From Candidatus Nomurabacteria bacterium GW2011_GWD2_36_14 (lineage in GTDB: Bacteria > Patescibacteriota > Minisyncoccia > Phycocordibacterales > UBA9973): DNA of 64,000 nt. The stretch lies in NCBI GenBank assembly GCA_000991405.1, contig LBRL01000001.1:315200-379199 (forward strand), given 5' to 3'. The first letter of the stretch is position 1, and each line of letters opens with the position of its first letter. The notes under the pieces are model-generated. The model did not search any database. It was not told the DNA's origin and saw only the letters and a list, made by a program, of their open reading frames with translations. Shown here in pieces: positions 2,154 to 52,748 of the stretch. The position numbers and the translations under genes are program-made.

Positions 2154-2906
2154 TTATCCATTTGGGTACATTTTAATTGCTAGTTTCTTACATTCTTCGA
2201 GAATTCCCTCTTCTTCTGGCAAGACAAGCGGAACTTCACGGTGAAATTCGGATACAGTGCCACTCACAAAATCTTTTAGTAGTTCTATTTGAACTTCGTG
2301 TTCTACAAGCAGGACTCGAGCTTGTAAGCTCTCGGCTGTATCGTCAGGTAATATTGGTATTTGTTTTCTTTTTAATACTACACCTTCGTCAAACTTTGCT
2401 GTTACTCGGTGTGCCGTCGCCTCAGTCCAGAAATCTCTCTCTACTTTTTGTACAAAGGAAAGTCTAGCTTGATGCACTCGCATACCATACATACCGACTC
2501 CTCCGAAGTCTAGGTGTCCGGCTTGCCCGCCTGAATTACTTGTATTTTGGCGGGTGTCGAGTGGCCCTGGATGCTGGTTGATAATCATTCCCTCAAATTC
2601 ATTGATTACATTCTCGGGAGTCATTACCATCCAGCCATATTGACCAATGAAGTCCACATTTCTCTTTCTGCATTCCTCTATAATTTTCTCTCCAAATTTT
2701 TCCCGAGTCTCAAAACTTTTCGGATTTATAACTAAAATATCCTCTTCTTTTATTCCAAGTCTGCTGGCCCTCTCTATGCCTCCCGCATTTTCCTTACTCG
2801 CTATGACTAAGGCGGGTATGACACTCGAAAGTACCCCACTATGGCAAGCTTTGATAATAGCTTCCATTGTAGTTCCTCCTCCTGAAATAAGTAATGCAAT
2901 CCTCAT
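2154..2906 (-). CDS. purN: Phosphoribosylglycinamide formyltransferase (PurN-like, with an insertion)
   Basis: N-terminal LISGGGT nucleotide-binding motif, then HPGPL...TAHRV..FDEG.V pattern of the formyl_trans_N family. It is the last gene of the pur cluster. Confidence 0.7.
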   Translation of the reverse strand: MRIALLISGGGTTMEAIIKACHSGVLSSVIPALVIASKENAGGIERASRLGIKEEDILVINPKSFETREKFGEKIIEECRKRNVDFIGQYGWMVMTPENVINEFEGMIINQHPGPLDTRQNTSNSGGQAGHLDFGGVGMYGMRVHQARLSFVQKVERDFWTEATAHRVTAKFDEGVVLKRKQIPILPDDTAESLQARVLLVEHEVQIELLKDFVSGTVSEFHREVPLVLPEEEGILEECKKLAIKMYPNG

Positions 2907-2916
2907 ATATAAAAAA

Positions 2917-4326
2917 TTAATTTTTAAACCTCAAGCTATCATACTTTATCTCTTTTTCATGCTCATATATAGGCAATGGATACTCTCCATTGAAAGCAGA
3001 TAGGCATAGTCGCCCCTTGGGTAATCCTGTAGCTTTTACCATGCCATCGATAGATAAGAAAGTAAGAGAAGTAGCTCCTATGAATTGTCTTGTCTCTTCG
3101 ATTGTCTTCTGTGATGAAATTAAATTTTCTTGACGAGGTGTATCTATACCGTAAAAGTCTGGGAATTTGACAGGAGCAGAAGCAACTAAAAAGTGAACCT
3201 CCTTAGCACCTGAATCAAAGAACATTTTAGCTATATCTCGAGAAGTATTACCGCGAACAATCGAATCATCTATGACTCCTACTCTTTTCCCTGTAACTAA
3301 ACTTCGAAGAACAGTGAGCTTCATTTTTATCTTCTGTTCGCGATTGGCTTGAGTCGGCTCAATAAATGTCCTATGAATATATCTATTCTTATTTAAAGCC
3401 ATTTCAAAAGGAACTCCAGATGCATGAGAATAACCAATAGCAGAAGGAATAGCTGTCTCAGGTACTGGAACGATGAGATCGAGTTTAAGTTTAGGATTTT
3501 CCTTAAATAACATTTTGCCGAAATTTTTACGGACTTCGTAGACAGATTGTCCAAGTATCTTGCAATCATGACGAGAAAAATAAACGAATTCAAAAATATC
3601 AAACTTAGGATCTGCTGTAGCTAATATTGTACTTTTCATACCACTTTTAGAAACAGTCACCAACTCACCAGGGAGAACTTCTCTTAAGAATTTAGCATTA
3701 ACCGTTCGAAGCCCACAGGTCTCTGAAGCGAAAACTGTCTCTTCCCCATTTGTTCCGACTACTAGAGGTCTTATTCCTCTAGGATCACGGAAGGCAACGA
3801 GTTCCTTGGTTGAAAGTGCTACACAAGAAAATGCTCCAGTAAAAAGTGGATACGCCTTCTCTACCGCTTTAGACAGTGACATTCCTTTATCCATATAAAA
3901 CCCAATAGCCTTCGCCATAAGTTCAGAATCTGAATGTCCCTTCGTCACTATTTTATTATTCTTAAGAAAATCTTCCAATGCTTTAGTATTAGGTAGATTG
4001 CCATTGTGAGCAAAAGCAAATTTATCGTTGTGAACAATCGGCTGAGCATGCTTTGTACTAGAACCACGAGAAGTAGAGTAACGGTTGTGTCCAATAGCTG
4101 CGAAACCTTCAAGACTTTTAATTATCTTCTCTGTATATACCTGACTTACAAGTCCTGATTTCTTGTATGAAAATATTTTCTTCCCATCGGTAGATGCTAT
4201 ACCTGTCTGCTCTTGACCCCTATGCTGCAACGCAAAGAGTCCAAAGTAAGCATAACGAGCAGCTTCTTTGCCATCCCAAATTCCAAAAACTGCACATTTT
4301 TCATTTATCCCATTAGAGATTTTCAT
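2917..4326 (-). CDS. purF: Amidophosphoribosyltransferase
   Basis: CAVFGIW...LQHRGQEQTGIA N-terminal nucleophile (Ntn) glutaminase motif plus a PRTase domain. Confidence 0.85.
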   Translation of the reverse strand: MKISNGINEKCAVFGIWDGKEAARYAYFGLFALQHRGQEQTGIASTDGKKIFSYKKSGLVSQVYTEKIIKSLEGFAAIGHNRYSTSRGSSTKHAQPIVHNDKFAFAHNGNLPNTKALEDFLKNNKIVTKGHSDSELMAKAIGFYMDKGMSLSKAVEKAYPLFTGAFSCVALSTKELVAFRDPRGIRPLVVGTNGEETVFASETCGLRTVNAKFLREVLPGELVTVSKSGMKSTILATADPKFDIFEFVYFSRHDCKILGQSVYEVRKNFGKMLFKENPKLKLDLIVPVPETAIPSAIGYSHASGVPFEMALNKNRYIHRTFIEPTQANREQKIKMKLTVLRSLVTGKRVGVIDDSIVRGNTSRDIAKMFFDSGAKEVHFLVASAPVKFPDFYGIDTPRQENLISSQKTIEETRQFIGATSLTFLSIDGMVKATGLPKGRLCLSAFNGEYPLPIYEHEKEIKYDSLRFKN

Positions 4327-4402: not shown

Positions 4403-5176
4403 TTATTTATTAAAATAATTTATTGCATTCTTAAATAAAATAAGTCCTGCACCTTCATCTGTTTTTCTTTTTTTATTTTTCTTTGTTTGCCAAAGTGGTG
4501 TTTGATGGAAGAATTGCGCACGTTCAGGATGAGGCATCATACCTAAGACTCGCCCCTGATATCCTAATATCCCTGCAATATCATGCATTGCTCCATTTGG
4601 ATTGGCTTCTAAACTTTGGAATTTGCAAATCTCCCCACTCGTATAAGTGAAAGCTATCTGCTTATTCTTTACCATTTCTTTGTATTCTTTAGAACTTATC
4701 AGGTATCTTCCCTCTCCATGAGCAATCGACAAAGAAATATCCTTTATACCAGTGAGCCAAGGACTCTTCCCTATAGATTTCAAATCTACCCAGCGGTCAA
4801 TATACTGTCCATTCTTGTTGTGAGTGAGAGCTCCCGGCAAAACACCCAGGGAAGTTAATATCTGAAATCCATTACAAATACCAATTGCTAAAGTATCCTG
4901 AGACAAGAATTCTTCTAACTCTTTCGATAAATGATTCTTAAATTTATTGGCATAAGCCTTACCACTACCTGTATCATCTCCATAAGAGAACCCTCCAGGG
5001 AAAACAAGTATCTGGTACTTAGAGAGCATTTTGGGTTCTGTAATCAAATCATTGATATGCACTATGTCAGCCTTGCCTCCGACAGATTCAAATGCAAACT
5101 TTGTTTCCTCTTCGCAGTTGAGTCCGTATCCAGACATTATTAAAATCTTTGGTTTTTTTATAGTATTTTTTTTCAT
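4403..5176 (-). CDS. purQ: Phosphoribosylformylglycinamidine synthase, glutaminase subunit
   Basis: GICNGFQIL catalytic Cys motif and the HPER motif. The gene overlaps purL by 4 nt. Confidence 0.85.
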   Translation of the reverse strand: MKKNTIKKPKILIMSGYGLNCEEETKFAFESVGGKADIVHINDLITEPKMLSKYQILVFPGGFSYGDDTGSGKAYANKFKNHLSKELEEFLSQDTLAIGICNGFQILTSLGVLPGALTHNKNGQYIDRWVDLKSIGKSPWLTGIKDISLSIAHGEGRYLISSKEYKEMVKNKQIAFTYTSGEICKFQSLEANPNGAMHDIAGILGYQGRVLGMMPHPERAQFFHQTPLWQTKKNKKRKTDEGAGLILFKNAINYFNK

Positions 5177-24085: not shown

Positions 24086-26779
24086 TTATTTCACTCCTAT
24101 TCTTCCCTTTACTCTTACATTTGATACCATTGTCCCCTTCTTCATCTCTACTATAATTTCCTTATTTTTCATTGTGACGTTTACAATATCTCCCTTCTTC
24201 ACCCCCTTGCCTATTATAAATGTCGCCACAGGATTAAGTATTTTATCTTGTATGAGTCTACCTAGTGGCCTTGCTCCATAGTGAGGGTTGTAGCCTTCCT
24301 TTGCCAAGTAAGTGAGCGCATCATTTGAAATTTCAAAACCAATTTCTTTAGCCTTTAATCTATCCACTACCACCTTTATCTTCAAATCTACAATGTGCCT
24401 GATAGCTTCAAGGGAAAGAATATCAAAAACAATTGTATCGTCGAGTCTATTTAAGAATTCTGGACGGAAATAATCCTTCAATGATTCTAATACTTTTTCT
24501 TTAGTCTGGGTATACTCATCTACTTTTGATTTATTGGTGAAGCCTAAAGTCTCCATCTTCTCGATAAACTGTGAACCAATATTTGAAGTAAGGATTATAA
24601 TCGTATTCTTAAAGTTCACTATTCTACCCTTGGCATCTGTCAGACGTCCTTCGTCAAGAACTTGCAGAAGCACGTTGAAAACTTCTGGGTGAGCTTTCTC
24701 AATCTCGTCAAAAAGAATTACAGAATACGGTCGGTGACGCACAGCTTCTGTAAGGTTGCCTGACTCATCATAACCAACATAGCCCGGTGGTGAGCCGATG
24801 AGCTTGGAGACACTATGACGCTCCATGTATTCACTCATATCCACTCTGATCAAGGCCTTGTCATCGTTGAACATGAATTCCGATAAAGCTTTCGTAAGCT
24901 CAGTTTTCCCTACACCTGTAGGACCCAAGAAGATAAATGAGCCGATGGGCTTGTTGGGATCTGAAATTCCAGCTCTATTCCTGCGAACAACATTTGCAAT
25001 TTTCTTAATAGCTTCATCTTGCCCTATTACACGAGCCCGGAGAACATCTTCTATGTTGGCCAACTTTTCTCTTTCTTCCTCAAGCATTTTCGAAAGTGGA
25101 ATACTTGTCCACATAGAAACGACTTCAGCAATATCTTCGGCGGTAATTTCTTCTTTCAGAATTCTTCGAGACTTTTGTAACTTCTTAAGTTTGGCAAGCT
25201 TGGTATCTAACTTCTTCTTCAAGTCTGGAATCTCTCCATAACGTATTTCAGCAACTCGTGCCAAGTCCGCGTGCATTTCGGCATTCTCCCCTTCGAGACG
25301 CAAAGTTTCTAATTCTTTTTTAATACCGCGAATCTCTACGACTGTCTCTTTCTCATTTTTCCATTTGAGTTCTAGCTCGTGAGTCTTTTCTTTCAAGTTA
25401 CCTATTTCTTTGTCTATATCTTTGACACGTGCATGAGCCTTCTTGCTTGATTCAGTTTTACCTGAGTCTCTGCCAATCTCATTTAGCAATGCTTCCTTCT
25501 CTATTTCGAAACGCATAATTTTGCGATGAGCATCTTCTAGAACTGGAGGCTTGTTTTCAAGTGCGATACGGAGAGCCGAAGAAGCTTCATCGATAAGATC
25601 CACAGCTTTATCGGGAAGATATCTGTTTGTAATATAGCGAGTAGAGAGAGTTACCGCAGAAACTATAGCATCATCTGTAATTCGAACTCCATGGAAAAGT
25701 TCATACTTCTCCTTGAGTCCACGAAGAATGGCAATAGTATCGTCCACACTTGGCTCGTCGATAAATATAGGTTGGAACCTTCTTGCAAGTGCAGGATCCT
25801 TCTCTATATGCTTCTGGTATTCCTTTAAAGTTGTCGCACCTATAGCACGAAGCTCTCCTCGAGCGAGTGCAGGCTTTAGCATATTGGAAGCATCGAGAGA
25901 TCCTTCAGAGCTTCCTGCTCCGACAATAGTATGGATCTCATCTATGAAGAGTATAATTTTGCCTTCAGCCTTCTCTATTTCTTTCAAGATACCACGAAGT
26001 CTCTCTTCAAATTCTCCTCTGTACTTGGTACCGGCAAGAAGAAGTCCCAAATCTAAGGATACAACTTCTTTGTCTTTCAAACTTTCAGGTACATCATTTT
26101 TAGCAATTCTTTGTGCCAAAGCTTCTGCGACTGCCGTCTTACCAGTACCTGCCTCGCCTATAAGTATAGGGTTATTCTTCGTACGACGAGAAAGTATCTG
26201 CATCATACGCATGATCTCAGTATCACGCCCTATGACTGGGTCAAGCTTGTCTTGACGAGCAAGCAAAGTAAGATTCCTTGTAAATTTGTTGATGAGTTTG
26301 GGTTGCTTGGGAGTGTTTACCTCACTACCCTTCTCTTTCCTAAGCTGGTTTAGAACTTCTAGAACTTGGTCTTTATTGATTTTAAATTTGCCAAGTAACT
26401 CTCGTGCCTCACCCGGAGTTTCAAGTAGAGAGAAGAACAAATGCTCAGTTGATACAAAGTCATCCTTCATATCAGTCGCTATCTTGCTAGAGCTTTCGAT
26501 AACTTGAGCTAAGTCTGGAGTAAGATACAGTTGATATGATGGAGACAAGGTATTCCTATTCTCAGGTGACTCTATCATGTCACTTAAGTTGTCTACTAAG
26601 AGAGTCGTATCGATATCCATTTTCTCTAGTATTGATATAACTACTGAATCTTCTTGAATAAGAAGCGATATGAGTAGGTGTAGAGTGTTCACATGATTCT
26701 GCCCACGTTCAATAGCCAGCTCGTGAGCCTTTCTAATAACTTCTTTGGCTTTAGTTGTAAAATGATTGAATGGGGGCAT
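24086..26779 (-). CDS. clpB: ATP-dependent chaperone ClpB
   Basis: Two AAA+ modules (GEAGTGKTA; GPTGVGKTE) with a long coiled-coil middle domain and a Clp_N repeat region. Confidence 0.9.
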   Translation of the reverse strand: MPPFNHFTTKAKEVIRKAHELAIERGQNHVNTLHLLISLLIQEDSVVISILEKMDIDTTLLVDNLSDMIESPENRNTLSPSYQLYLTPDLAQVIESSSKIATDMKDDFVSTEHLFFSLLETPGEARELLGKFKINKDQVLEVLNQLRKEKGSEVNTPKQPKLINKFTRNLTLLARQDKLDPVIGRDTEIMRMMQILSRRTKNNPILIGEAGTGKTAVAEALAQRIAKNDVPESLKDKEVVSLDLGLLLAGTKYRGEFEERLRGILKEIEKAEGKIILFIDEIHTIVGAGSSEGSLDASNMLKPALARGELRAIGATTLKEYQKHIEKDPALARRFQPIFIDEPSVDDTIAILRGLKEKYELFHGVRITDDAIVSAVTLSTRYITNRYLPDKAVDLIDEASSALRIALENKPPVLEDAHRKIMRFEIEKEALLNEIGRDSGKTESSKKAHARVKDIDKEIGNLKEKTHELELKWKNEKETVVEIRGIKKELETLRLEGENAEMHADLARVAEIRYGEIPDLKKKLDTKLAKLKKLQKSRRILKEEITAEDIAEVVSMWTSIPLSKMLEEEREKLANIEDVLRARVIGQDEAIKKIANVVRRNRAGISDPNKPIGSFIFLGPTGVGKTELTKALSEFMFNDDKALIRVDMSEYMERHSVSKLIGSPPGYVGYDESGNLTEAVRHRPYSVILFDEIEKAHPEVFNVLLQVLDEGRLTDAKGRIVNFKNTIIILTSNIGSQFIEKMETLGFTNKSKVDEYTQTKEKVLESLKDYFRPEFLNRLDDTIVFDILSLEAIRHIVDLKIKVVVDRLKAKEIGFEISNDALTYLAKEGYNPHYGARPLGRLIQDKILNPVATFIIGKGVKKGDIVNVTMKNKEIIVEMKKGTMVSNVRVKGRIGVK

Positions 26780-26785
26780 AAATTA

Positions 26786-26817
26786 GGTTCTAGTAACTAG
26801 GTTCTAGTGACTAGTAA
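26786..26817 (-). promoter_or_regulatory. Direct-repeat box pair TTACTAGTCAC-N10-TTACTAGAACC ending 6 nt upstream of the clpB ATG
   Basis: Minus-strand reading: tTTACTAGTCACtagaacctagTTACTAGAACCtaattt-ATG. The dprA box at 14952-14983 is nearly identical. Confidence 0.45.
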
Positions 26818-30872: not shown

Positions 30873-31199
30873 ATGTCCGAATATCGAACAGAGAAAATAA
30901 CAAATCATATTAAGGAGCTTGCTGCTACTTTCATAGAAAGAGAAGCGGGTCCTACTTCCCTTATCACTGTCACTCGTGTGCTTCTTTCTCCTGACAATAA
31001 AAGAGCCAAGATTATGATCAGCGTCCTTCCTCGCGAGAAAGAGAACGCTGCGTTTGGATTCATCAGGAGGAACTTGGGTGACTTGCGCAAACACGTGAAG
31101 AAAGGGCTCAAGATAAACCCTATCCCCTTTCTTGAAGTTGAAATAGATGAAGGTGAAAAGAATCGTCAACGAATTGACGAATTGTTGATTCAAGGTTAA
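30873..31199 (+). CDS. rbfA: Ribosome-binding factor A
   Basis: KH-like RbfA pattern (ITVTRV.LS.D...A.I..S). It is in the canonical infB-rbfA arrangement. Confidence 0.8.
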   Translation: MSEYRTEKITNHIKELAATFIEREAGPTSLITVTRVLLSPDNKRAKIMISVLPREKENAAFGFIRRNLGDLRKHVKKGLKINPIPFLEVEIDEGEKNRQRIDELLIQG

Positions 31200-31249
31200 A
31201 AATTAGTTGCTAGGTTCTAGTTTCTAGTTTATAGTAGAAAAATAAGTAA

Positions 31250-31321
31250 GGCCTGGTAGCCAAGTGGTAAGGCAGAGATCTGCAAAATCTCTATGCGGCG
31301 GTTCAATTCCGCCCCAGGCCT
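31250..31321 (+). tRNA. tRNA-Cys (anticodon GCA)
   Basis: Acceptor GGCCTGG/CCAGGCC, anticodon loop CTGCAAA, T-arm GGCGGTTCAATTCCGCC, discriminator T. Confidence 0.85.
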
Positions 31322-42715: not shown

Positions 42716-42743
42716 AGCTCCCCTAAGCAAGGCTTGGGGGAGC
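42716..42743 (-). terminator. Terminator hairpin downstream of rpsR
   Basis: AGCTCCCCtaagcaaggcttGGGGGAGCT. The apex is 'aagcaaggctt'. Confidence 0.5.
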
Positions 42744-42800
42744 TATTTAAATATGCTTATTTAGCAATGTAGGGCTAAACCAAATTGGTCGCCCGATTGC

Positions 42801-43001
42801 CTACTTGGCAATATAGGGTAGTAATCCCATGAATCGAGCACGCTTGATAGCTATGGCTAGCTTGCGTTGATTCTTGGCTGTTACATCTGTCCTCTTGCGA
42901 GACTGCATACGAGCACTAGGAGTTATAAAGCGTCGTAGAAGTTCTACGTCTTTATAGTCTATGTGCTTTATGTTATTTGATGAAAAATAATCTTGTTTCA
43001 T
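42801..43001 (-). CDS. rpsR: 30S ribosomal protein S18
   Basis: IDYKDVELLRRFI....RKLAIAIKRARFMGLLPY. The MKQDYF start at 43001 is preferred over the ORF start at 43043. Confidence 0.85.
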   Translation of the reverse strand: MKQDYFSSNNIKHIDYKDVELLRRFITPSARMQSRKRTDVTAKNQRKLAIAIKRARFMGLLPYIAK

Positions 43002-43004
43002 ATT

Positions 43005-43034
43005 AGTGATAAGGGAATAGTGAGAAGCGAATAG
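43005..43034. repeat. Repeat family copy A (agtgataagggaatagtgagaagcgaatag) between the 4HB gene and rpsR
   Basis: It is a direct repeat of 43435-43468 and inverted relative to 43492-43510 and 44044-44063. Confidence 0.6.
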
Positions 43035-43042
43035 CAAACTCA

Positions 43043-43414
43043 TTAGTCCTGTTTTAATTTTTTAATAATAACTGATAATAATTTTTCAACTTCAATGACC
43101 AATATTAATGCTCTGTTTACATTAATTTTTGGATACATTTCATTGCATAAAATTAATTGTGTTTCTAATTCAGCAGAAGATCCATATGCAATAATGAGAA
43201 ATCGTACAAAATCTCTTGTTCCTCTTTTATGTCCCTCTGCAATATTACTCGGAATAGAGATAGCACTTCTTTTCATTTGGGAATTAAGACTGTACATTTC
43301 TTCATGAGGTAACTTTTTAGAAATATCATATATTTCTTTTGCTAATTCCATGGCTTTTTGCCAAACTATAAGTTCTTTAAATGAAGTAAGCATAAAAAAT
43401 AAATTTATTTTCAC
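43043..43414 (-). CDS. Four-helix-bundle protein (23S rRNA intervening-sequence protein family, TIGR02436-like), inserted between ssb and rpsR
   Basis: WQKA.ELAKEIY.....P.EE.YSL.SQM.RSAISIPSNIAEG..R....DF.RFL.IA.GS..ELETQL. GTG at 43414 and ATG at 43393 are alternative starts. Confidence 0.75.
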   Translation of the reverse strand: MKINLFFMLTSFKELIVWQKAMELAKEIYDISKKLPHEEMYSLNSQMKRSAISIPSNIAEGHKRGTRDFVRFLIIAYGSSAELETQLILCNEMYPKINVNRALILVIEVEKLLSVIIKKLKQD

Positions 43415-43434
43415 TATCCTCTTTACTCTTGATT

Positions 43435-43468
43435 AGTGACAAGTGGATAGTGGTAAGCGAACAGTGAG
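43435..43468. repeat. Repeat family copy B (agtgacaagtggatagtggtaagcgaacagtgag)
   Basis: Direct repeat of copy A with ~5 mismatches over 30 nt. The two copies flank the 4HB gene. Confidence 0.6.
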
Positions 43469-43491
43469 ATTTTTAATTAATTATTCTCCCC

Positions 43492-43519
43492 CCACTATTC
43501 CCTTTACTCTATTCCCTTT
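43492..43519. repeat. Repeat family copy C, inverted orientation (ccactattccctttactct attcccttt)
   Basis: The reverse complement aagggaatagtgg matches aagggaatagtgag in copy A. Together with copy A this makes a ~13-bp inverted pair bracketing the 4HB ORF. Confidence 0.6.
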
Positions 43520-43522
43520 TTA

Positions 43523-43963
43523 CTAGAAAGGTATATCCTCTGCATTTATCTGCTCTTCTGGGTACTCTATGGTATCTATCTCCTCTTCTTTTTTAGAAGC
43601 AGGTGCTTGTGAAGAAGGTGAAGACGAACCACTTGGCTTGGAACCAAATTGCACAGTATCTGCAATAACTTCTGTACGATACTTCTTAGTATTTGTGGCA
43701 GCATCATCCCAGCTTCGAGTCTCCATGCGCCCTTCGACTAGTATCTGACTTCCCTTCTTCATATAAGTAGCTACGTTCTCTGCTGTCTTGCCCCATACTA
43801 CTATATTGTGATAATCAGTCTTCTCTTGTCTTACTCCATTGGCATCTTTGTAAGTACGATTGGTGGCAATACTGAAAGTACAAACTTTATTTCCTGATGC
43901 TATGGCCTTTAATTCTGGATCACGAGTTAAATTCCCTATAAGAATTGCTTTGTTTAAATACAT
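43523..43963 (-). CDS. ssb: Single-stranded DNA-binding protein
   Basis: OB-fold NKAILIGNLTRDPEL...W motif and an acidic C-terminal tail ending in EDIPF. Confidence 0.85.
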   Translation of the reverse strand: MYLNKAILIGNLTRDPELKAIASGNKVCTFSIATNRTYKDANGVRQEKTDYHNIVVWGKTAENVATYMKKGSQILVEGRMETRSWDDAATNTKKYRTEVIADTVQFGSKPSGSSSPSSQAPASKKEEEIDTIEYPEEQINAEDIPF

Positions 43964-43983
43964 ATAATTAGTGTTTAGGGTAT

Positions 43984-44013
43984 AGAGTAAAGCGTATAGT
44001 GAATACGAAACTC
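43984..44013. repeat. Repeat family copy D (agagtaaagcgtatagtgaatacgaaactc)
   Basis: The agagtaaag-N-atagtg core is shared with the reverse complement of copy C. Confidence 0.5.
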
Positions 44014-44043
44014 AATTCCCAAAATTTATTTAGCTAATAAACC

Positions 44044-44076
44044 CTCACTATTCCCTTTACTCTACTCACTATCCCC
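44044..44076. repeat. Repeat family copy E, inverted orientation (ctcactattccctttactct actcactatcccc)
   Basis: ctcactattccctt is the exact reverse complement of aagggaatagtgag in copy A. Confidence 0.6.
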
Positions 44077-44083
44077 TAAAACA

Positions 44084-44587
44084 TTATACCACAAGAGCAT
44101 CAATTTCCTTGTCTACTTCTTCTACGTTAAGAGGTAAAGATTCCTCTGTTTTTGGAGTAAAACGACGCTTTGAAGCATCTGTTTTACCATATGCACGTTT
44201 GGTAGACATAGTACTCTCACGAACAGTCTTAATCATAAGATAACGAACAAGCTTTTCGTTTTTATCTAAGAATTCTTTTATAATCTTGCCATTTGCAGTT
44301 GTACACTCAAACTTTACCCAACCGAAATACCCATAAGAAAACTTCTGTTTCTTGTTAGCGATAGAACGAGACATCTCGTATGCTAGTTCTAACATCTTAG
44401 GATACTCATCAGAAATGAATACCGCTCCGTGGTCTCCCAAGGAGTCCTTCAATGCTGTGACTTCTCCTCCAAGATTCTCTTCTGGAATACTTGGAATCAT
44501 TATATAACCTACTTCATAAATAGAAGACTTTGCATCTGTAGTATCTACATCTGCTCCGTTATCTACAACTTCTTTTACTTTTGCCAT
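44084..44587 (-). CDS. rpsF: 30S ribosomal protein S6 (with a short N-terminal extension)
   Basis: YEVGYIMIPS...GG.V.......G.RKLAY-like S6 pattern. It is the first gene of the rpsF-ssb-rpsR operon. Confidence 0.7.
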   Translation of the reverse strand: MAKVKEVVDNGADVDTTDAKSSIYEVGYIMIPSIPEENLGGEVTALKDSLGDHGAVFISDEYPKMLELAYEMSRSIANKKQKFSYGYFGWVKFECTTANGKIIKEFLDKNEKLVRYLMIKTVRESTMSTKRAYGKTDASKRRFTPKTEESLPLNVEEVDKEIDALVV

Positions 44588-44712
44588 GTATATTTAGCGT
44601 AAATACGCTTAATTTATTACTTTTAATATCATTTCACTATGGACCAGTGTGTACCGGTTATAAGACCGGGACAAATGAAATGTAGAGTCATACTAACAGA
44701 TATTGGACTAAA

Positions 44713-44793
44713 TGTCCACTCCCACACCTATATTTTTATTGCAGGTATTTAAACCTGCGTTGAAAACTATAAAAATATAGGTGTGGGAGTCCA
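44713..44793. repeat. 20-bp perfect inverted repeat (actcccacacctatattttt / aaaaatataggtgtgggagt) enclosing a small hairpin gcaggtatttaaacctgc
   Basis: Visible in the sequence. It lies between the end of the giant fibre gene and the rpsF start. Confidence 0.6.
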
Positions 44794-44869
44794 CTTTTTC
44801 TATAGGTTGCTTTGCATAGTATTTTAACTCTACTGGATAAAATAGGTCTTTTATCTCCAGTACACTATG

Positions 44870-50338: not shown

Positions 50339-51265
50339 TTAGAATTTAAAAAGTCGCTTGGCATTTAGGACTATCTGCTTGGCTACAATTTCTTCGTCTA
50401 ATCCTTTTATTTGAGCTATTTTAGCAACTATGTCCTTCACATATGAAGGTTCATTCCTCTGCCCTCTGTGGGGTACTGGAGCCACGTACGGGCTATCTGT
50501 ATCGGCGAGAATCATATCAAGCGGTGTCTCTCTTATGACCGCTTCATAATCACAAATCTCAGGCTTTGGCTTGTACGTTATAGGACCAGCGAAAGATACA
50601 AGTATGCCTATCTCTACGAACCTCTTCATGTCTTCTACACTTCCAGCAAAGAAGTGTGATACTCCCTTATAATATGGAAGTCCGACTTCCATATTATTCG
50701 GAAGTCGGACTTCCGAATGTTTTTTAATGAGTTCATAAATATCAAAATAAGCGTTGTGAGTTTTGTTAGTAGAATGATTGCGGACATGAAGCATCAAGGG
50801 TAAACCAAGCTCGTTGGCAAGTTCAATTTGAGCAATGAACGCAACTTTCTGTTTCTCTATACTATCTTCGTCCATATGGTAATAATCAAGTCCACACTCA
50901 CCTACTCCTACTACCTTCCCCCGTTTTGCAAGTTCTCTGTACTTATCTTTATCAAAAATTTCCCCACGAGAAACAAAACCTTGTTCATTCCTTTTCCCGT
51001 CTGTAGCTAATGCAGAGTCGGGGCTTCCCAGTTCCTCTTGATCATGATATGAAGCTCCTGTATGTATAGGATGAAGACCAATACAAGCATACACTCCCTC
51101 CCCATATTCATTGGTCATTTCTACTGCCTTCTTGGAAGTATCATATTGGGTGCCAATATTTATAACCCAAGTGTCATTTTCCAAAGCACGCGAAACAACC
51201 TCATCTCGATCTTCCTCGAATGCTTTGAAGTTCGTATGTGCATGTATGTCGATGTATTTAGGCAT
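50339..51265 (-). CDS. tatD: TatD-family metal-dependent hydrolase/DNase
   Basis: IDIHAHTNF...GLHP...GECGLDY...HVR..H motifs. The start at 51265 is preferred. The gene contains an in-frame palindromic duplication at 50676-50719. Confidence 0.8.
   Translation of the reverse strand: MPKYIDIHAHTNFKAFEEDRDEVVSRALENDTWVINIGTQYDTSKKAVEMTNEYGEGVYACIGLHPIHTGASYHDQEELGSPDSALATDGKRNEQGFVSRGEIFDKDKYRELAKRGKVVGVGECGLDYYHMDEDSIEKQKVAFIAQIELANELGLPLMLHVRNHSTNKTHNAYFDIYELIKKHSEVRLPNNMEVGLPYYKGVSHFFAGSVEDMKRFVEIGILVSFAGPITYKPKPEICDYEAVIRETPLDMILADTDSPYVAPVPHRGQRNEPSYVKDIVAKIAQIKGLDEEIVAKQIVLNAKRLFKF
50676..50719. repeat. Tandem inverted palindromes within tatD (ggaagtccgacttcc ... ttcggaagtcggacttccgaa), encoding the duplicated peptide MEVGLPNNMEVGLP
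   Basis: The palindromes are visible in the sequence, and the duplicated peptide is seen in the translation. Confidence 0.6.
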
Positions 51266-51271
51266 AAGATA

Positions 51272-51300
51272 ATTACTAGTTACCAATTACTGATTACTAA
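51272..51300 (-). promoter_or_regulatory. TTAGTAATCAG-N-GGTAACTAGTAAT box ending 7 nt upstream of the tatD ATG; a variant of the dprA/clpB box
   Basis: Minus-strand reading: aattagtaatcagtaattggtaactagtaattatctt-ATG. Confidence 0.3.
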
Positions 51301-51308
51301 TTAAAAAG

Positions 51309-52748
51309 TTACTTTCTTAAAAATAATGGAGTTTCGGGCTTTTTGTTTTGTTTGATTAGTTCCTTTAGCTTTATGTTTGTTTCGGGCATTATAGGATTCA
51401 GCATGCGGGCTATCACATACAATTTCAAAATCAAATCTTTTATCATTTCCTTCCCTTTCTCTTCATCAACTTTTACAACTTTAAATGGCTGTGTGTCCTG
51501 AATAATCTTATCTAATTCAGCAATCTTTTCCCACACATAATCTGTCGCTTTTTTAATATCAAAAGATTCATAAAATTTAAAGTATTCTGTAAAATCAGAA
51601 ACTTCGGGAATTTCTGGACACTTCTCCAAATACTTTTCAGACAAAGTCAAAATACGAGAAGCTAGATTCCCCAACCCGTTGGCTAATCCTGAATTGTAAG
51701 AATCTTTGAATCTCTCTATAGTGAAAGGACTATCCTCAAAGCTTCCCACTTCACGAAGAAGAAAGTATCGGAGAGCATCAGTACCGTATTCTTTAACTAC
51801 GTCGCGTGGATCTACCACATTGCCAAGGGTCTTTGACATACGTATTCCTCCATCACCAGTTATAAATCCATTTACAACTATCTGATGTGAATTCTCTACC
51901 CCTGCTGCCATCAGCATGGCTTGCCACATAGCACTCTGGAAGCGAGTGTTGTCCTTGCCACAGTATTGAGTAGGAGTTCCGTTGACCCAATACTTTTCAA
52001 AATTACCATCAGTCTTTGGCCAGCCAAGAGTTGATATATAGTTTACAAGTGCATCAAACCATACATACATGACTTGTGTGTCGTCCCCAGGTACTGCTAT
52101 ACCCCAAGGCATCTTCTCTTTCAAGCGTGAAATAGAGAAGTCTTGTAACCCACTTTTCACAAAGTTTTTGATTTCATTCAAACGAAAATCCGGAATAACA
52201 AAATTTGGATTTTTATCATAAAATTCCAAAAGCTTATCCCCAAATGCGGAATATTTAAAGAAGTAATTTTCTTCATTTATTATTTTCAGATCTATTCCTG
52301 GATGCTCTGGACAGTAGCCATTCACAAGCTCACCATCAGTCTTCTCACTTTCACACCCCACACAATACTTGGCTTCATAATTTTTCTTATAAATATAGCC
52401 GTTGTCAGAGACTCTCTTCCAGAATTCTTGAGCGGCTTTCTCATGATGCTTGTCTGTTGTACGAATAAAGTGTATATCATCTACCACGCCAAACATTTTC
52501 AACTGCTCTTTAAAAACTTCAAATCCTTGATCTACGAACTCTTGGGCTGAAATACCTTGCTCCTTTGCTTTCTCAAATATTTTCAATCCATGCTCGTCAG
52601 TACCAGTATTGAAGTAGACATCATAACCCAAGAGTTTCTTGTAGCGTACTATGGTATCAGCCCGCACAAACTCTAAAGCGTGCCCCATGTGAAGCGGAGC
52701 ATTGACGTAAGGTAATGTAGTTGTGAGATAAAACGGAGTATTTTTCAT
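51309..52748 (-). CDS. metG: Methionyl-tRNA synthetase (short form, without the C-terminal tRNA-binding domain)
   Basis: PYVNAPLHMGH (HIGH motif), Zn knuckle CPEHPGI..C, and KMSKS as RMSKTLGN. Confidence 0.9.
   Translation of the reverse strand: MKNTPFYLTTTLPYVNAPLHMGHALEFVRADTIVRYKKLLGYDVYFNTGTDEHGLKIFEKAKEQGISAQEFVDQGFEVFKEQLKMFGVVDDIHFIRTTDKHHEKAAQEFWKRVSDNGYIYKKNYEAKYCVGCESEKTDGELVNGYCPEHPGIDLKIINEENYFFKYSAFGDKLLEFYDKNPNFVIPDFRLNEIKNFVKSGLQDFSISRLKEKMPWGIAVPGDDTQVMYVWFDALVNYISTLGWPKTDGNFEKYWVNGTPTQYCGKDNTRFQSAMWQAMLMAAGVENSHQIVVNGFITGDGGIRMSKTLGNVVDPRDVVKEYGTDALRYFLLREVGSFEDSPFTIERFKDSYNSGLANGLGNLASRILTLSEKYLEKCPEIPEVSDFTEYFKFYESFDIKKATDYVWEKIAELDKIIQDTQPFKVVKVDEEKGKEMIKDLILKLYVIARMLNPIMPETNIKLKELIKQNKKPETPLFLRK

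Follow-up and report, generated by a model that had tools for sequence, protein, structure and literature searches.

The closest described counterparts of the element considered here are the intervening sequences (IVSs) of ribosomal RNA (rRNA), the stems of which RNase III cuts (PMC4990558). In Coxiella burnetii and Leptospira, the IVS of 23S rRNA encodes in its loop S23p, a protein of family PF05635, and both the function of this very large family of four-helix-bundle (4HB) proteins and the origin of rRNA IVSs have been open questions since approximately 1990. Here, we have analyzed a 64,000-nt stretch of DNA (hereafter the window, to which all positions without a locus name refer) from a population of Candidatus Nomurabacteria (Paceibacteria; candidate phyla radiation, CPR), in which a 4HB gene of the same family lies between ssb and rpsR, within the operon that begins with rpsF. 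Within CPR, 22 PF05635 open reading frames (ORFs) have been reported in rRNA insertion sequences, 18 in 16S and 4 in 23S rRNA (Tsurumaki et al., J Bacteriol 2024; PMC11270868, Table S4), and 17 of these 22 are located in insertions with no match to either group I or group II introns (PMC11270868). This implies that the link to rRNA is real at the family level in this phylum. Those insertions share the phylum-level host group and the ORF family with the window locus and differ from it in being inside rRNA genes.

Compared with the ORF-bearing IVSs of Coxiella and Leptospira, the window locus has the same protein family in its loop and a similar build, i.e., an element of approximately 430-520 nt with terminal inverted repeats and a stem of approximately 25-30 bp, which is sporadic among relatives and occupies a highly conserved locus that tolerates loop-out or cutting at the RNA level (PMC4990558). 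The two flanks of the 4HB gene contain 31-nt arms (43004-43034 and 43495-43525) that are 81% complementary, and the predicted duplex of these flanks reaches -33.1 kcal/mol, compared with -21.2 +/- 3.2 kcal/mol in shuffles. We consider it probable that the ssb-rpsR spacer is occupied in full by a stem-loop ('armed') cassette which carries the 4HB gene as its cargo and is the mRNA counterpart of an ORF-bearing rRNA IVS, and that this cassette is old, resides at one site, and has been repeatedly lost or re-acquired. It also differs from the known IVSs. It is located in the spacer of a polycistronic mRNA between ssb and rpsR and not in helix 9, 25 or 45 of 23S rRNA (rRNA was found neither in the window nor in 1.3 Mb of sequence scanned); strong purifying selection acts on its ORF, in contrast to Coxiella S23p, which was reported as probably not made in vivo; and its arms are periodic at 7 nt, with ORF-less sister hairpins adjoining. 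The features of the operon are as follows, in the order of transcription.

44084-44587, minus strand: rpsF (ribosomal protein S6), the first cistron (PF01250, E 7e-8)
44045-44079, minus strand: A5, purine-rich 5' arm of hairpin A, a few nt 3' of the rpsF stop codon (inverted repeat I1, 35 nt, 77% complementary)
43968-44002, minus strand: A3, pyrimidine-rich 3' arm of hairpin A (direct-repeat family D1)
43523-43963, minus strand: ssb (PF00436, E 5e-40; TIGR00621)
43492-43517, minus strand: B5, 5' arm of hairpin B, also the long-range partner of C3
43431-43464, minus strand: B3, 3' arm of hairpin B, ending in ...GTCACTAAT (D1 member)
43410-43429, minus strand: C5, a short 5' arm closely preceding the 4HB ORF (3 mismatches; D3, I8, I15)
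43043-43393, minus strand: 4HB gene (23S_rRNA_IVP / TIGR02436), 116 aa (PF05635, E 2e-32)
43002-43034, minus strand: C3, 3' arm of the 4HB cassette, its last base directly preceding the rpsR ATG
42801-43001, minus strand: rpsR (ribosomal protein S18), ATG at 43001 (PF01084, E 6e-22)
42716-42744, minus strand: GC-rich hairpin 3' of rpsR, followed by TTCGTTTG on the sense strand (inverted repeat I19)

The minus-strand gene order is thus rpsF, ssb, 4HB gene and rpsR, and the identities of these genes are well supported. The 4HB protein scored 112 bits against PF05635 (cut-off 33.8) and 108.5 bits against TIGR02436 (cut-off 24), which places it in both families, and it matched the solved four-helix bundle PDB 2GSC at E 1e-17. 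Its start is the ATG at 43393, as set by homologue alignment, which disfavored GTG 43414 as an alternative start. For rpsF, 508 homologues were detected at E <= 1e-10. A scan of relatives with one genome per species yielded 80 loci with the operon, and all 80 align with rpsR from the Met at 43001. Since the operon sequence is base-for-base identical across four independent assemblies, the arrangement is not an assembly artefact.

The three spacers of the operon contain six copies of one repeat family, and no copy was found outside the operon in the 64 kb. With up to 3 mismatches allowed, AGAGTAAAGGGAATAGTGAG has five matches in the window, all inside 43005-44063, compared with a mean of 0.01 in shuffled sequences, none of which (0/100) reached five. 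These five matches include 43410-43429 and omit 43435-43468, the copy that was placed in D1 by the repeat finder. An earlier reading of the window from its sequence alone (hereafter the sequence-only reading) had listed five copies; all five are real, and the one at 43410-43429 had been missed. On the sense strand, the copies can be parsed into three units, each composed of a purine-rich 5' arm, a loop and a pyrimidine-rich 3' arm. Hairpins A and B carry no ORF, and the third unit holds the 4HB ORF in its loop. Hairpin A (44079-43968) fills the rpsF-ssb spacer and folds at -33.3 kcal/mol (z -3.7; 0/200 shuffles as good), with the sense strand of this spacer folding 8.6 kcal/mol better than the antisense strand; hairpin B (43517-43431) takes up the initial part of the ssb-4HB spacer and folds at -23.5 kcal/mol (z -3.1). 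A3 ends in ...CACTAATTAT with the ssb ATG directly after it, and the 3' arms of both hairpin A and the cassette end in ...CACTAAT, immediately followed by the next start codon. B3 is 82% identical to C3 within the D1 family.

The cassette itself is bounded by heptad arms (GGAATAGTG / CACTATTCC). Its 5' arm consists of 7-nt units ending in TAG and begins just 3' of the ssb stop codon, and its 3' arm, pyrimidine-rich with CTA heptads and complementary to the 5' arm, extends up to the last base ahead of the rpsR ATG. When the 541-nt stretch was folded, the minimum-energy structure had B5 paired with C3 and B3 with C5. The sequence-only reading had described the 4HB gene as bracketed by an inverted pair and had held that the inverted pairs would form long-range stems like those of IVS excision. 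The arms, match counts and fold z-scores given above agree with non-random repeats, stable stems and an ORF looped as in ORF-bearing rRNA IVSs. That reading had also proposed that ssb is bracketed by a long-range inverted pair. Such a pair does exist (43493-43517 / 43977-44001; 25 nt, 88% complementary), but local hairpins within each spacer explain it more simply.

Close homologues of the 4HB protein indicate that the cassette has a long history at this site. Six homologues of 61-84% identity were looked up, and every one of them is encoded between ssb and rpsR with complementary flanks, most of which are arms of the window's family, i.e., GGAATAG just 3' of the ssb stop codon and ...CACTAA just 5' of the rpsR ATG. 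The ratio of non-synonymous to synonymous divergence (dN/dS) among the same-site 4HB copies is 0.08-0.14 at a dS of 0.9-1.2, which implies old copies of a protein that has a function, and the identity of 4HB proteins in pairwise comparisons follows that of the host proteins (r 0.75). These substitution patterns mark the 4HB protein as a product maintained by selection and not a decaying remnant. The arms appear to be constrained as well, considering that two other lineages (L085 and L086), whose 4HB genes are at dS ~1 from that of the window, share with it the C3 18-mer CTATTCCCTTATCACTAA without a single difference. L085 has the window's full architecture in both spacers, and many lineages that are intermediate in the tree lack it. 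Accordingly, the suggestion of the sequence-only reading that an IVS-type cassette had landed in a ribosomal protein operon holds in part: the IVS-protein family, the stem-enclosed ORF and an empty site in a relative stand, and a recent or one-off landing does not, given the clade of 4HB genes at the ssb-rpsR junction in many Paceibacteria lineages, its dS of ~1, the purifying selection and the host-tracking divergence.

More distant 4HB genes in CPR are located in other operons. L178, L179 and L183 carry one 5' of prgI in type-IV-secretion-like clusters, L181 carries one 5' of recA, L071 has one on the opposite strand downstream of rpsR, and the gene in L175 lies between an ABC ATPase and a permease, with very short flanks (z ~-2). 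The arms are complementary in each of these cassettes, with z mostly between -2.8 and -5.5, and all of the clear-cut 4HB cassettes examined, which cover four genomic contexts, have complementary flanks. The proteins group by site into an rpsR-linked and a prgI-linked clade. In addition, an unrelated ORF was found in the same kind of setting. L179 (Staskawiczbacteria, GCA_016196125.1) encodes at 3483-3958 a 134-aa protein of the GxxExxY / PD-(D/E)XK_3 type (TIGR04256, 107.9 bits) between a TraC-like and a TraG cistron that directly neighbor each other in L178 and L183, and this gene is flanked by complementary heptad arms (ACGAATTACGAAT / ATTCGTAATTCGT) with a duplex energy of -18.2 kcal/mol, compared with -4.5 +/- 1.9 kcal/mol (z -7.2). 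When the arms of eight cassettes with different arm families were compared, cognate pairing (-25.6 kcal/mol) was much stronger than non-cognate pairing (-13.1 kcal/mol; permutation p 5e-5), which is family-level covariation of the arms. A literature search turned up no account of 4HB cassettes that reside in operons or of hairpin elements in CPR.

A broader feature of this operon is that all of its intercistronic spacers in the 80 species show a 7-nt periodicity (autocorrelation at lag 7 and lag 14, z 13-19), which is common to empty, hairpin-filled and 4HB-flanking spacers. The periodic units are (NNNNTAG)n in 5' arms, (CTANNNN)n in 3' arms and (AATTAAG)n in empty spacers; since a stop triplet recurs every 7 nt, stops fall in all three frames. 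In the window, the periodicity is present in 43002-44083 and also in 31186-31251, 51260-51315 and 26780-26814.

Comparison with relatives revealed the empty site that the sequence-only reading had proposed to look for. The 4HB gene is present between ssb and rpsR in three of the 80 related species and absent from this site in the other 77, which include L005, the closest species representative (S6 97% identical). The identity between the window and L005 along the operon is 94% for rpsF, 88% for ssb and 87% for rpsR. The ssb-rpsR spacer of L005 is 40 nt long and contains neither a gene nor arms, and in the alignment the replacement of the spacer runs from the stop codon up to the ATG without duplication of a flank (i.e., no target-site duplication). 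Empty spacers are conserved across lineages, and the L005 spacer is similar to them, which argues against a simple deletion scar. On the S6+SSB+S18 tree, the distribution of the 4HB gene requires 7 changes by parsimony, compared with 25 losses under a single origin. In L077, the sister of the 4HB-bearing L078, the ssb-rpsR spacer (4940-5121) contains an N run together with a duplication of the first 18 rpsR codons; the N run is an assembly gap exactly at the expected position of a cassette.

These data bear directly on the alternative that the rpsF operon of Paceibacteria inherited the 4HB gene vertically, as an accessory member which was lost in many lineages, the arms being regulatory or coupling structures that evolved in place from heptad repeats, with nothing mobile involved. 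Divergence that follows the host (r 0.75), a dS of ~1 at a dN/dS of ~0.1, the separate rpsR-linked and prgI-linked clades, and a 7-nt periodicity common to empty spacers, filled spacers and cassette flanks are all in agreement with such a history. However, approximately 25 independent and precise losses would be needed instead of 7 changes, the L005 spacer resembles the conserved empty spacers and not a deletion scar, the same two-spacer architecture recurs in the window and L085 with many lineages between them lacking it, and operons unrelated to this one, as well as an unrelated ORF, show the armed architecture too. We therefore regard purely vertical inheritance as possible but rather unlikely.

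Hairpins turn over in the spacers of this operon. The spacer lengths are bimodal, approximately 30 nt when empty and 90-140 nt when filled by a hairpin, and at least five hairpin families could be distinguished, which are common to distant lineages and differ between close sisters; the rpsF-ssb spacer of L005, for instance, contains a hairpin of a sequence family wholly different from that in the window. Hairpin presence on the S6+SSB+S18 tree requires at least 20 and at least 19 changes in the two spacers. The L005 hairpin belongs to a non-periodic family (CCCGTTAGAAGCCGCGGTCGC ... GACCGCGACCTGCTTCTAACGGG), which occupies 3351-3480 and ends exactly at the ssb ATG; members of this family are also present in L035, L036, L046, L052, L059 and L063, and L048 has a copy elsewhere (162-284). 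A single 264-nt spacer of L059 contains a tandem of three different hairpin families. Another family (CTAGAAC/CTAGTNA heptads), which is the commonest hairpin family in relatives, is represented by solo arms that were found in the window at 26780-26814, directly 5' of the ATG of a minus-strand gene ending at 26779, and at 31200-31235, between the stop codon of a gene and a tRNA at 31250.

Several properties of these elements point to the RNA level. In the window family, folding of the sense strand is favored over that of the antisense strand by 8-11 kcal/mol in each of four cassettes and each of four hairpins, as expected from G-U pairing in a transcript. In 47 of the 60 filled spacers, the predicted spanning helix has its start a median of 8 nt past the stop codon and its end a median of 3 nt short of the ATG, so that the base of the stem would bring the stop codon next to the start codon. 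This modelled geometry favours a role in RNA.

Considering such turnover, the hairpins might instead be ordinary DNA transposons resembling MITEs (miniature inverted-repeat transposable elements), with the terminal inverted repeats as transposase sites, the 4HB gene as a passenger or a neighboring insertion, and RNA folding as incidental. The Correia elements of Neisseria (CREE/NEMIS) and other bacterial MITEs are known systems of this kind: one report (PMC2649163) describes hairpins of approximately 100-150 nt that are co-transcribed with their neighbors and present or absent between strains, and states that RNase III binds CREE RNA, which is cleaved or protected. The five or more hairpin families common to distant lineages and present or absent between sisters, the changes on the tree (at least 20 and at least 19), the three tandem families in L059, the solo arms of another family in the window, and the lack of an overall strand asymmetry of folding would be expected of such transposons. 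On the other hand, no target-site duplication is seen at the window/L005 junctions, and no transposase was found in the neighborhood. The window elements, unlike Correia elements, show no dispersed high copy number within the 64 kb, occupy the spacer precisely between the stop codon and the start codon, and include heptad arms and one unit with a conserved ORF. Moreover, the purine-rich arm lies upstream on the sense strand in every copy read of the window family and of the GTAG/CTAC family, the window family folds better on the sense strand, the primary sequence of the arms is conserved at dS ~1, and the same 7-nt periodicity already exists in empty spacers. Overall, we find an origin of the hairpins as ordinary transposons improbable.

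That the repeats reflect chance similarity or low complexity of spacers which are, admittedly, AT-rich and periodic has next to no probability in view of five matches where 0.01 are expected, fold z-scores of -3 to -4, conservation of the arms across species and the cognate-pairing test (p 5e-5).

If the 4HB gene is the cargo of an armed cassette, the following mechanism may be proposed. The arms would pair in the polycistronic transcript, so that the insert forms a long, looped-out hairpin whose base brings the ssb stop codon next to the rpsR start codon. Pairing of the arms would thereby keep the essential downstream cistron expressed and make the insert harmless to it. Two routes are conceivable. 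RNase III may cleave the stem by analogy with rRNA IVSs, or the terminating ribosome may melt the stem in a termination-coupled manner. Melting of a stem by a terminating ribosome is an established principle of translational coupling. At the level of evolution, one cassette clade resides at the ssb-rpsR junction in Paceibacteria and would be repeatedly lost or re-acquired from relatives, the latter plausibly via homologous recombination through the highly conserved flanking genes.

A number of observations weigh against the armed-cassette reading or limit its reach. The tree behind the change counts is a neighbour-joining tree of approximately 380 residues and is weakly resolved. When all hairpin families are pooled, the sense/antisense asymmetry of folding is not significant (31 vs 26, p 0.13). 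Pairing of the arms is weak in two cassettes, L080 and L092 (z ~-1.5), and in the window the pairings B5:B3, B5:C3, B3:C5 and A3:B5 compete with one another, the 4HB ORF being looped in all of them. In L178, whose 4HB-prgI region spans 2501-3734, a second, very divergent PF05635 copy after prgI has no complementary arms (z -0.1). No RNase III gene or signature was seen within the window. An exact 20-mer scan of GTDB genome contigs returned no match; the species representative evidently differs in sequence, and the scan is silent on other sites in the genome. In a metagenome scan with the 18-mer of the 3' arm, 76 loci were retrieved, only two of which are real, both being operon cassettes already found here, and the remaining 74, where neither 4HB nor ssb nor rpsR was matched, had the look of chance hits.

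The findings in other operons raise the more general and quite tentative possibility that CPR genomes harbor a class of armed cassettes, in which small ORFs (4HB or the GxxExxY PD-(D/E)XK nuclease) within complementary heptad arms colonize both rRNA and the intercistronic junctions just 5' of genes of very high conservation (rpsR, recA, prgI) and are looped out or excised, with ORF-less hairpins as MITE-like derivatives and an Avd-like 4HB protein that binds the arms and is needed for processing or spread. Avd, the accessory protein of diversity-generating retroelements (DGRs), is a basic pentamer that binds nucleic acid. It has a homologous four-helix-bundle fold, and its homology to this family was discussed previously (PMC10053308); the window protein gave weak matches to PF22296 and NF033474, the latter at 19.6 bits against a cut-off of 80, which does not qualify it as a DGR Avd, and no reverse transcriptase or template/variable repeat pair was found in the operon neighborhood. 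By analogy, the homology with Avd offers a lead for binding of the arms by the 4HB protein.

If such a class is real, rRNA IVSs would be one habitat of a wider family of RNA-insulated elements. The ORF-in-stem architecture in protein-coding operons offers a second and simpler context for studying the function of arms and protein, with the strengths of an ORF under purifying selection, empty sites in relatives, co-varying arms and a second cargo gene. It also shows the intercistronic spacers of these reduced genomes to be hot spots where hairpins turn over, with a periodicity of 7 nt, which bears on gene calling, operon annotation and translation initiation in CPR.

Other kinds of elements were also considered. 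An integron cassette was rejected, as the arm ends (GGAATAG...CACTAAT) lack the RYYYAAC/GTTRRRY cores of attC, no integrase was found and the flanking genes are core housekeeping genes. The spacer hairpins do not qualify as intrinsic terminators or attenuators, having no T tail and being unflagged in a terminator scan, and Rfam contained nothing relevant for the repeats at the gathering threshold, with only spurious miRNA-hairpin matches at E <= 1. An internal promoter for the 4HB gene was likewise discarded, since there is a single weak match (9/12) and promoter-like sites are rarer than in shuffles.

No Shine-Dalgarno-like sequence is visible 5' of rpsF, ssb or rpsR in the window (42801-44587) or in relatives, and the conserved empty spacers of the operon are pure A/T-rich heptads, which suggests that initiation in this operon is independent of Shine-Dalgarno sequences or coupled to upstream termination.

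Two further hairpins flank the operon. The GC-rich hairpin 3' of rpsR (42716-42744), with 13-nt arms that are 92% complementary and a 3-nt loop, is likely the operon terminator. At the other end, a near-perfect hairpin (44710-44798; 30-nt arms 90% complementary, 29-nt loop), for which Rfam gave only spurious sub-threshold miRNA matches, sits between a gene for a 1797-aa surface protein and rpsF, and it could be either a terminator or an rpsF leader structure.

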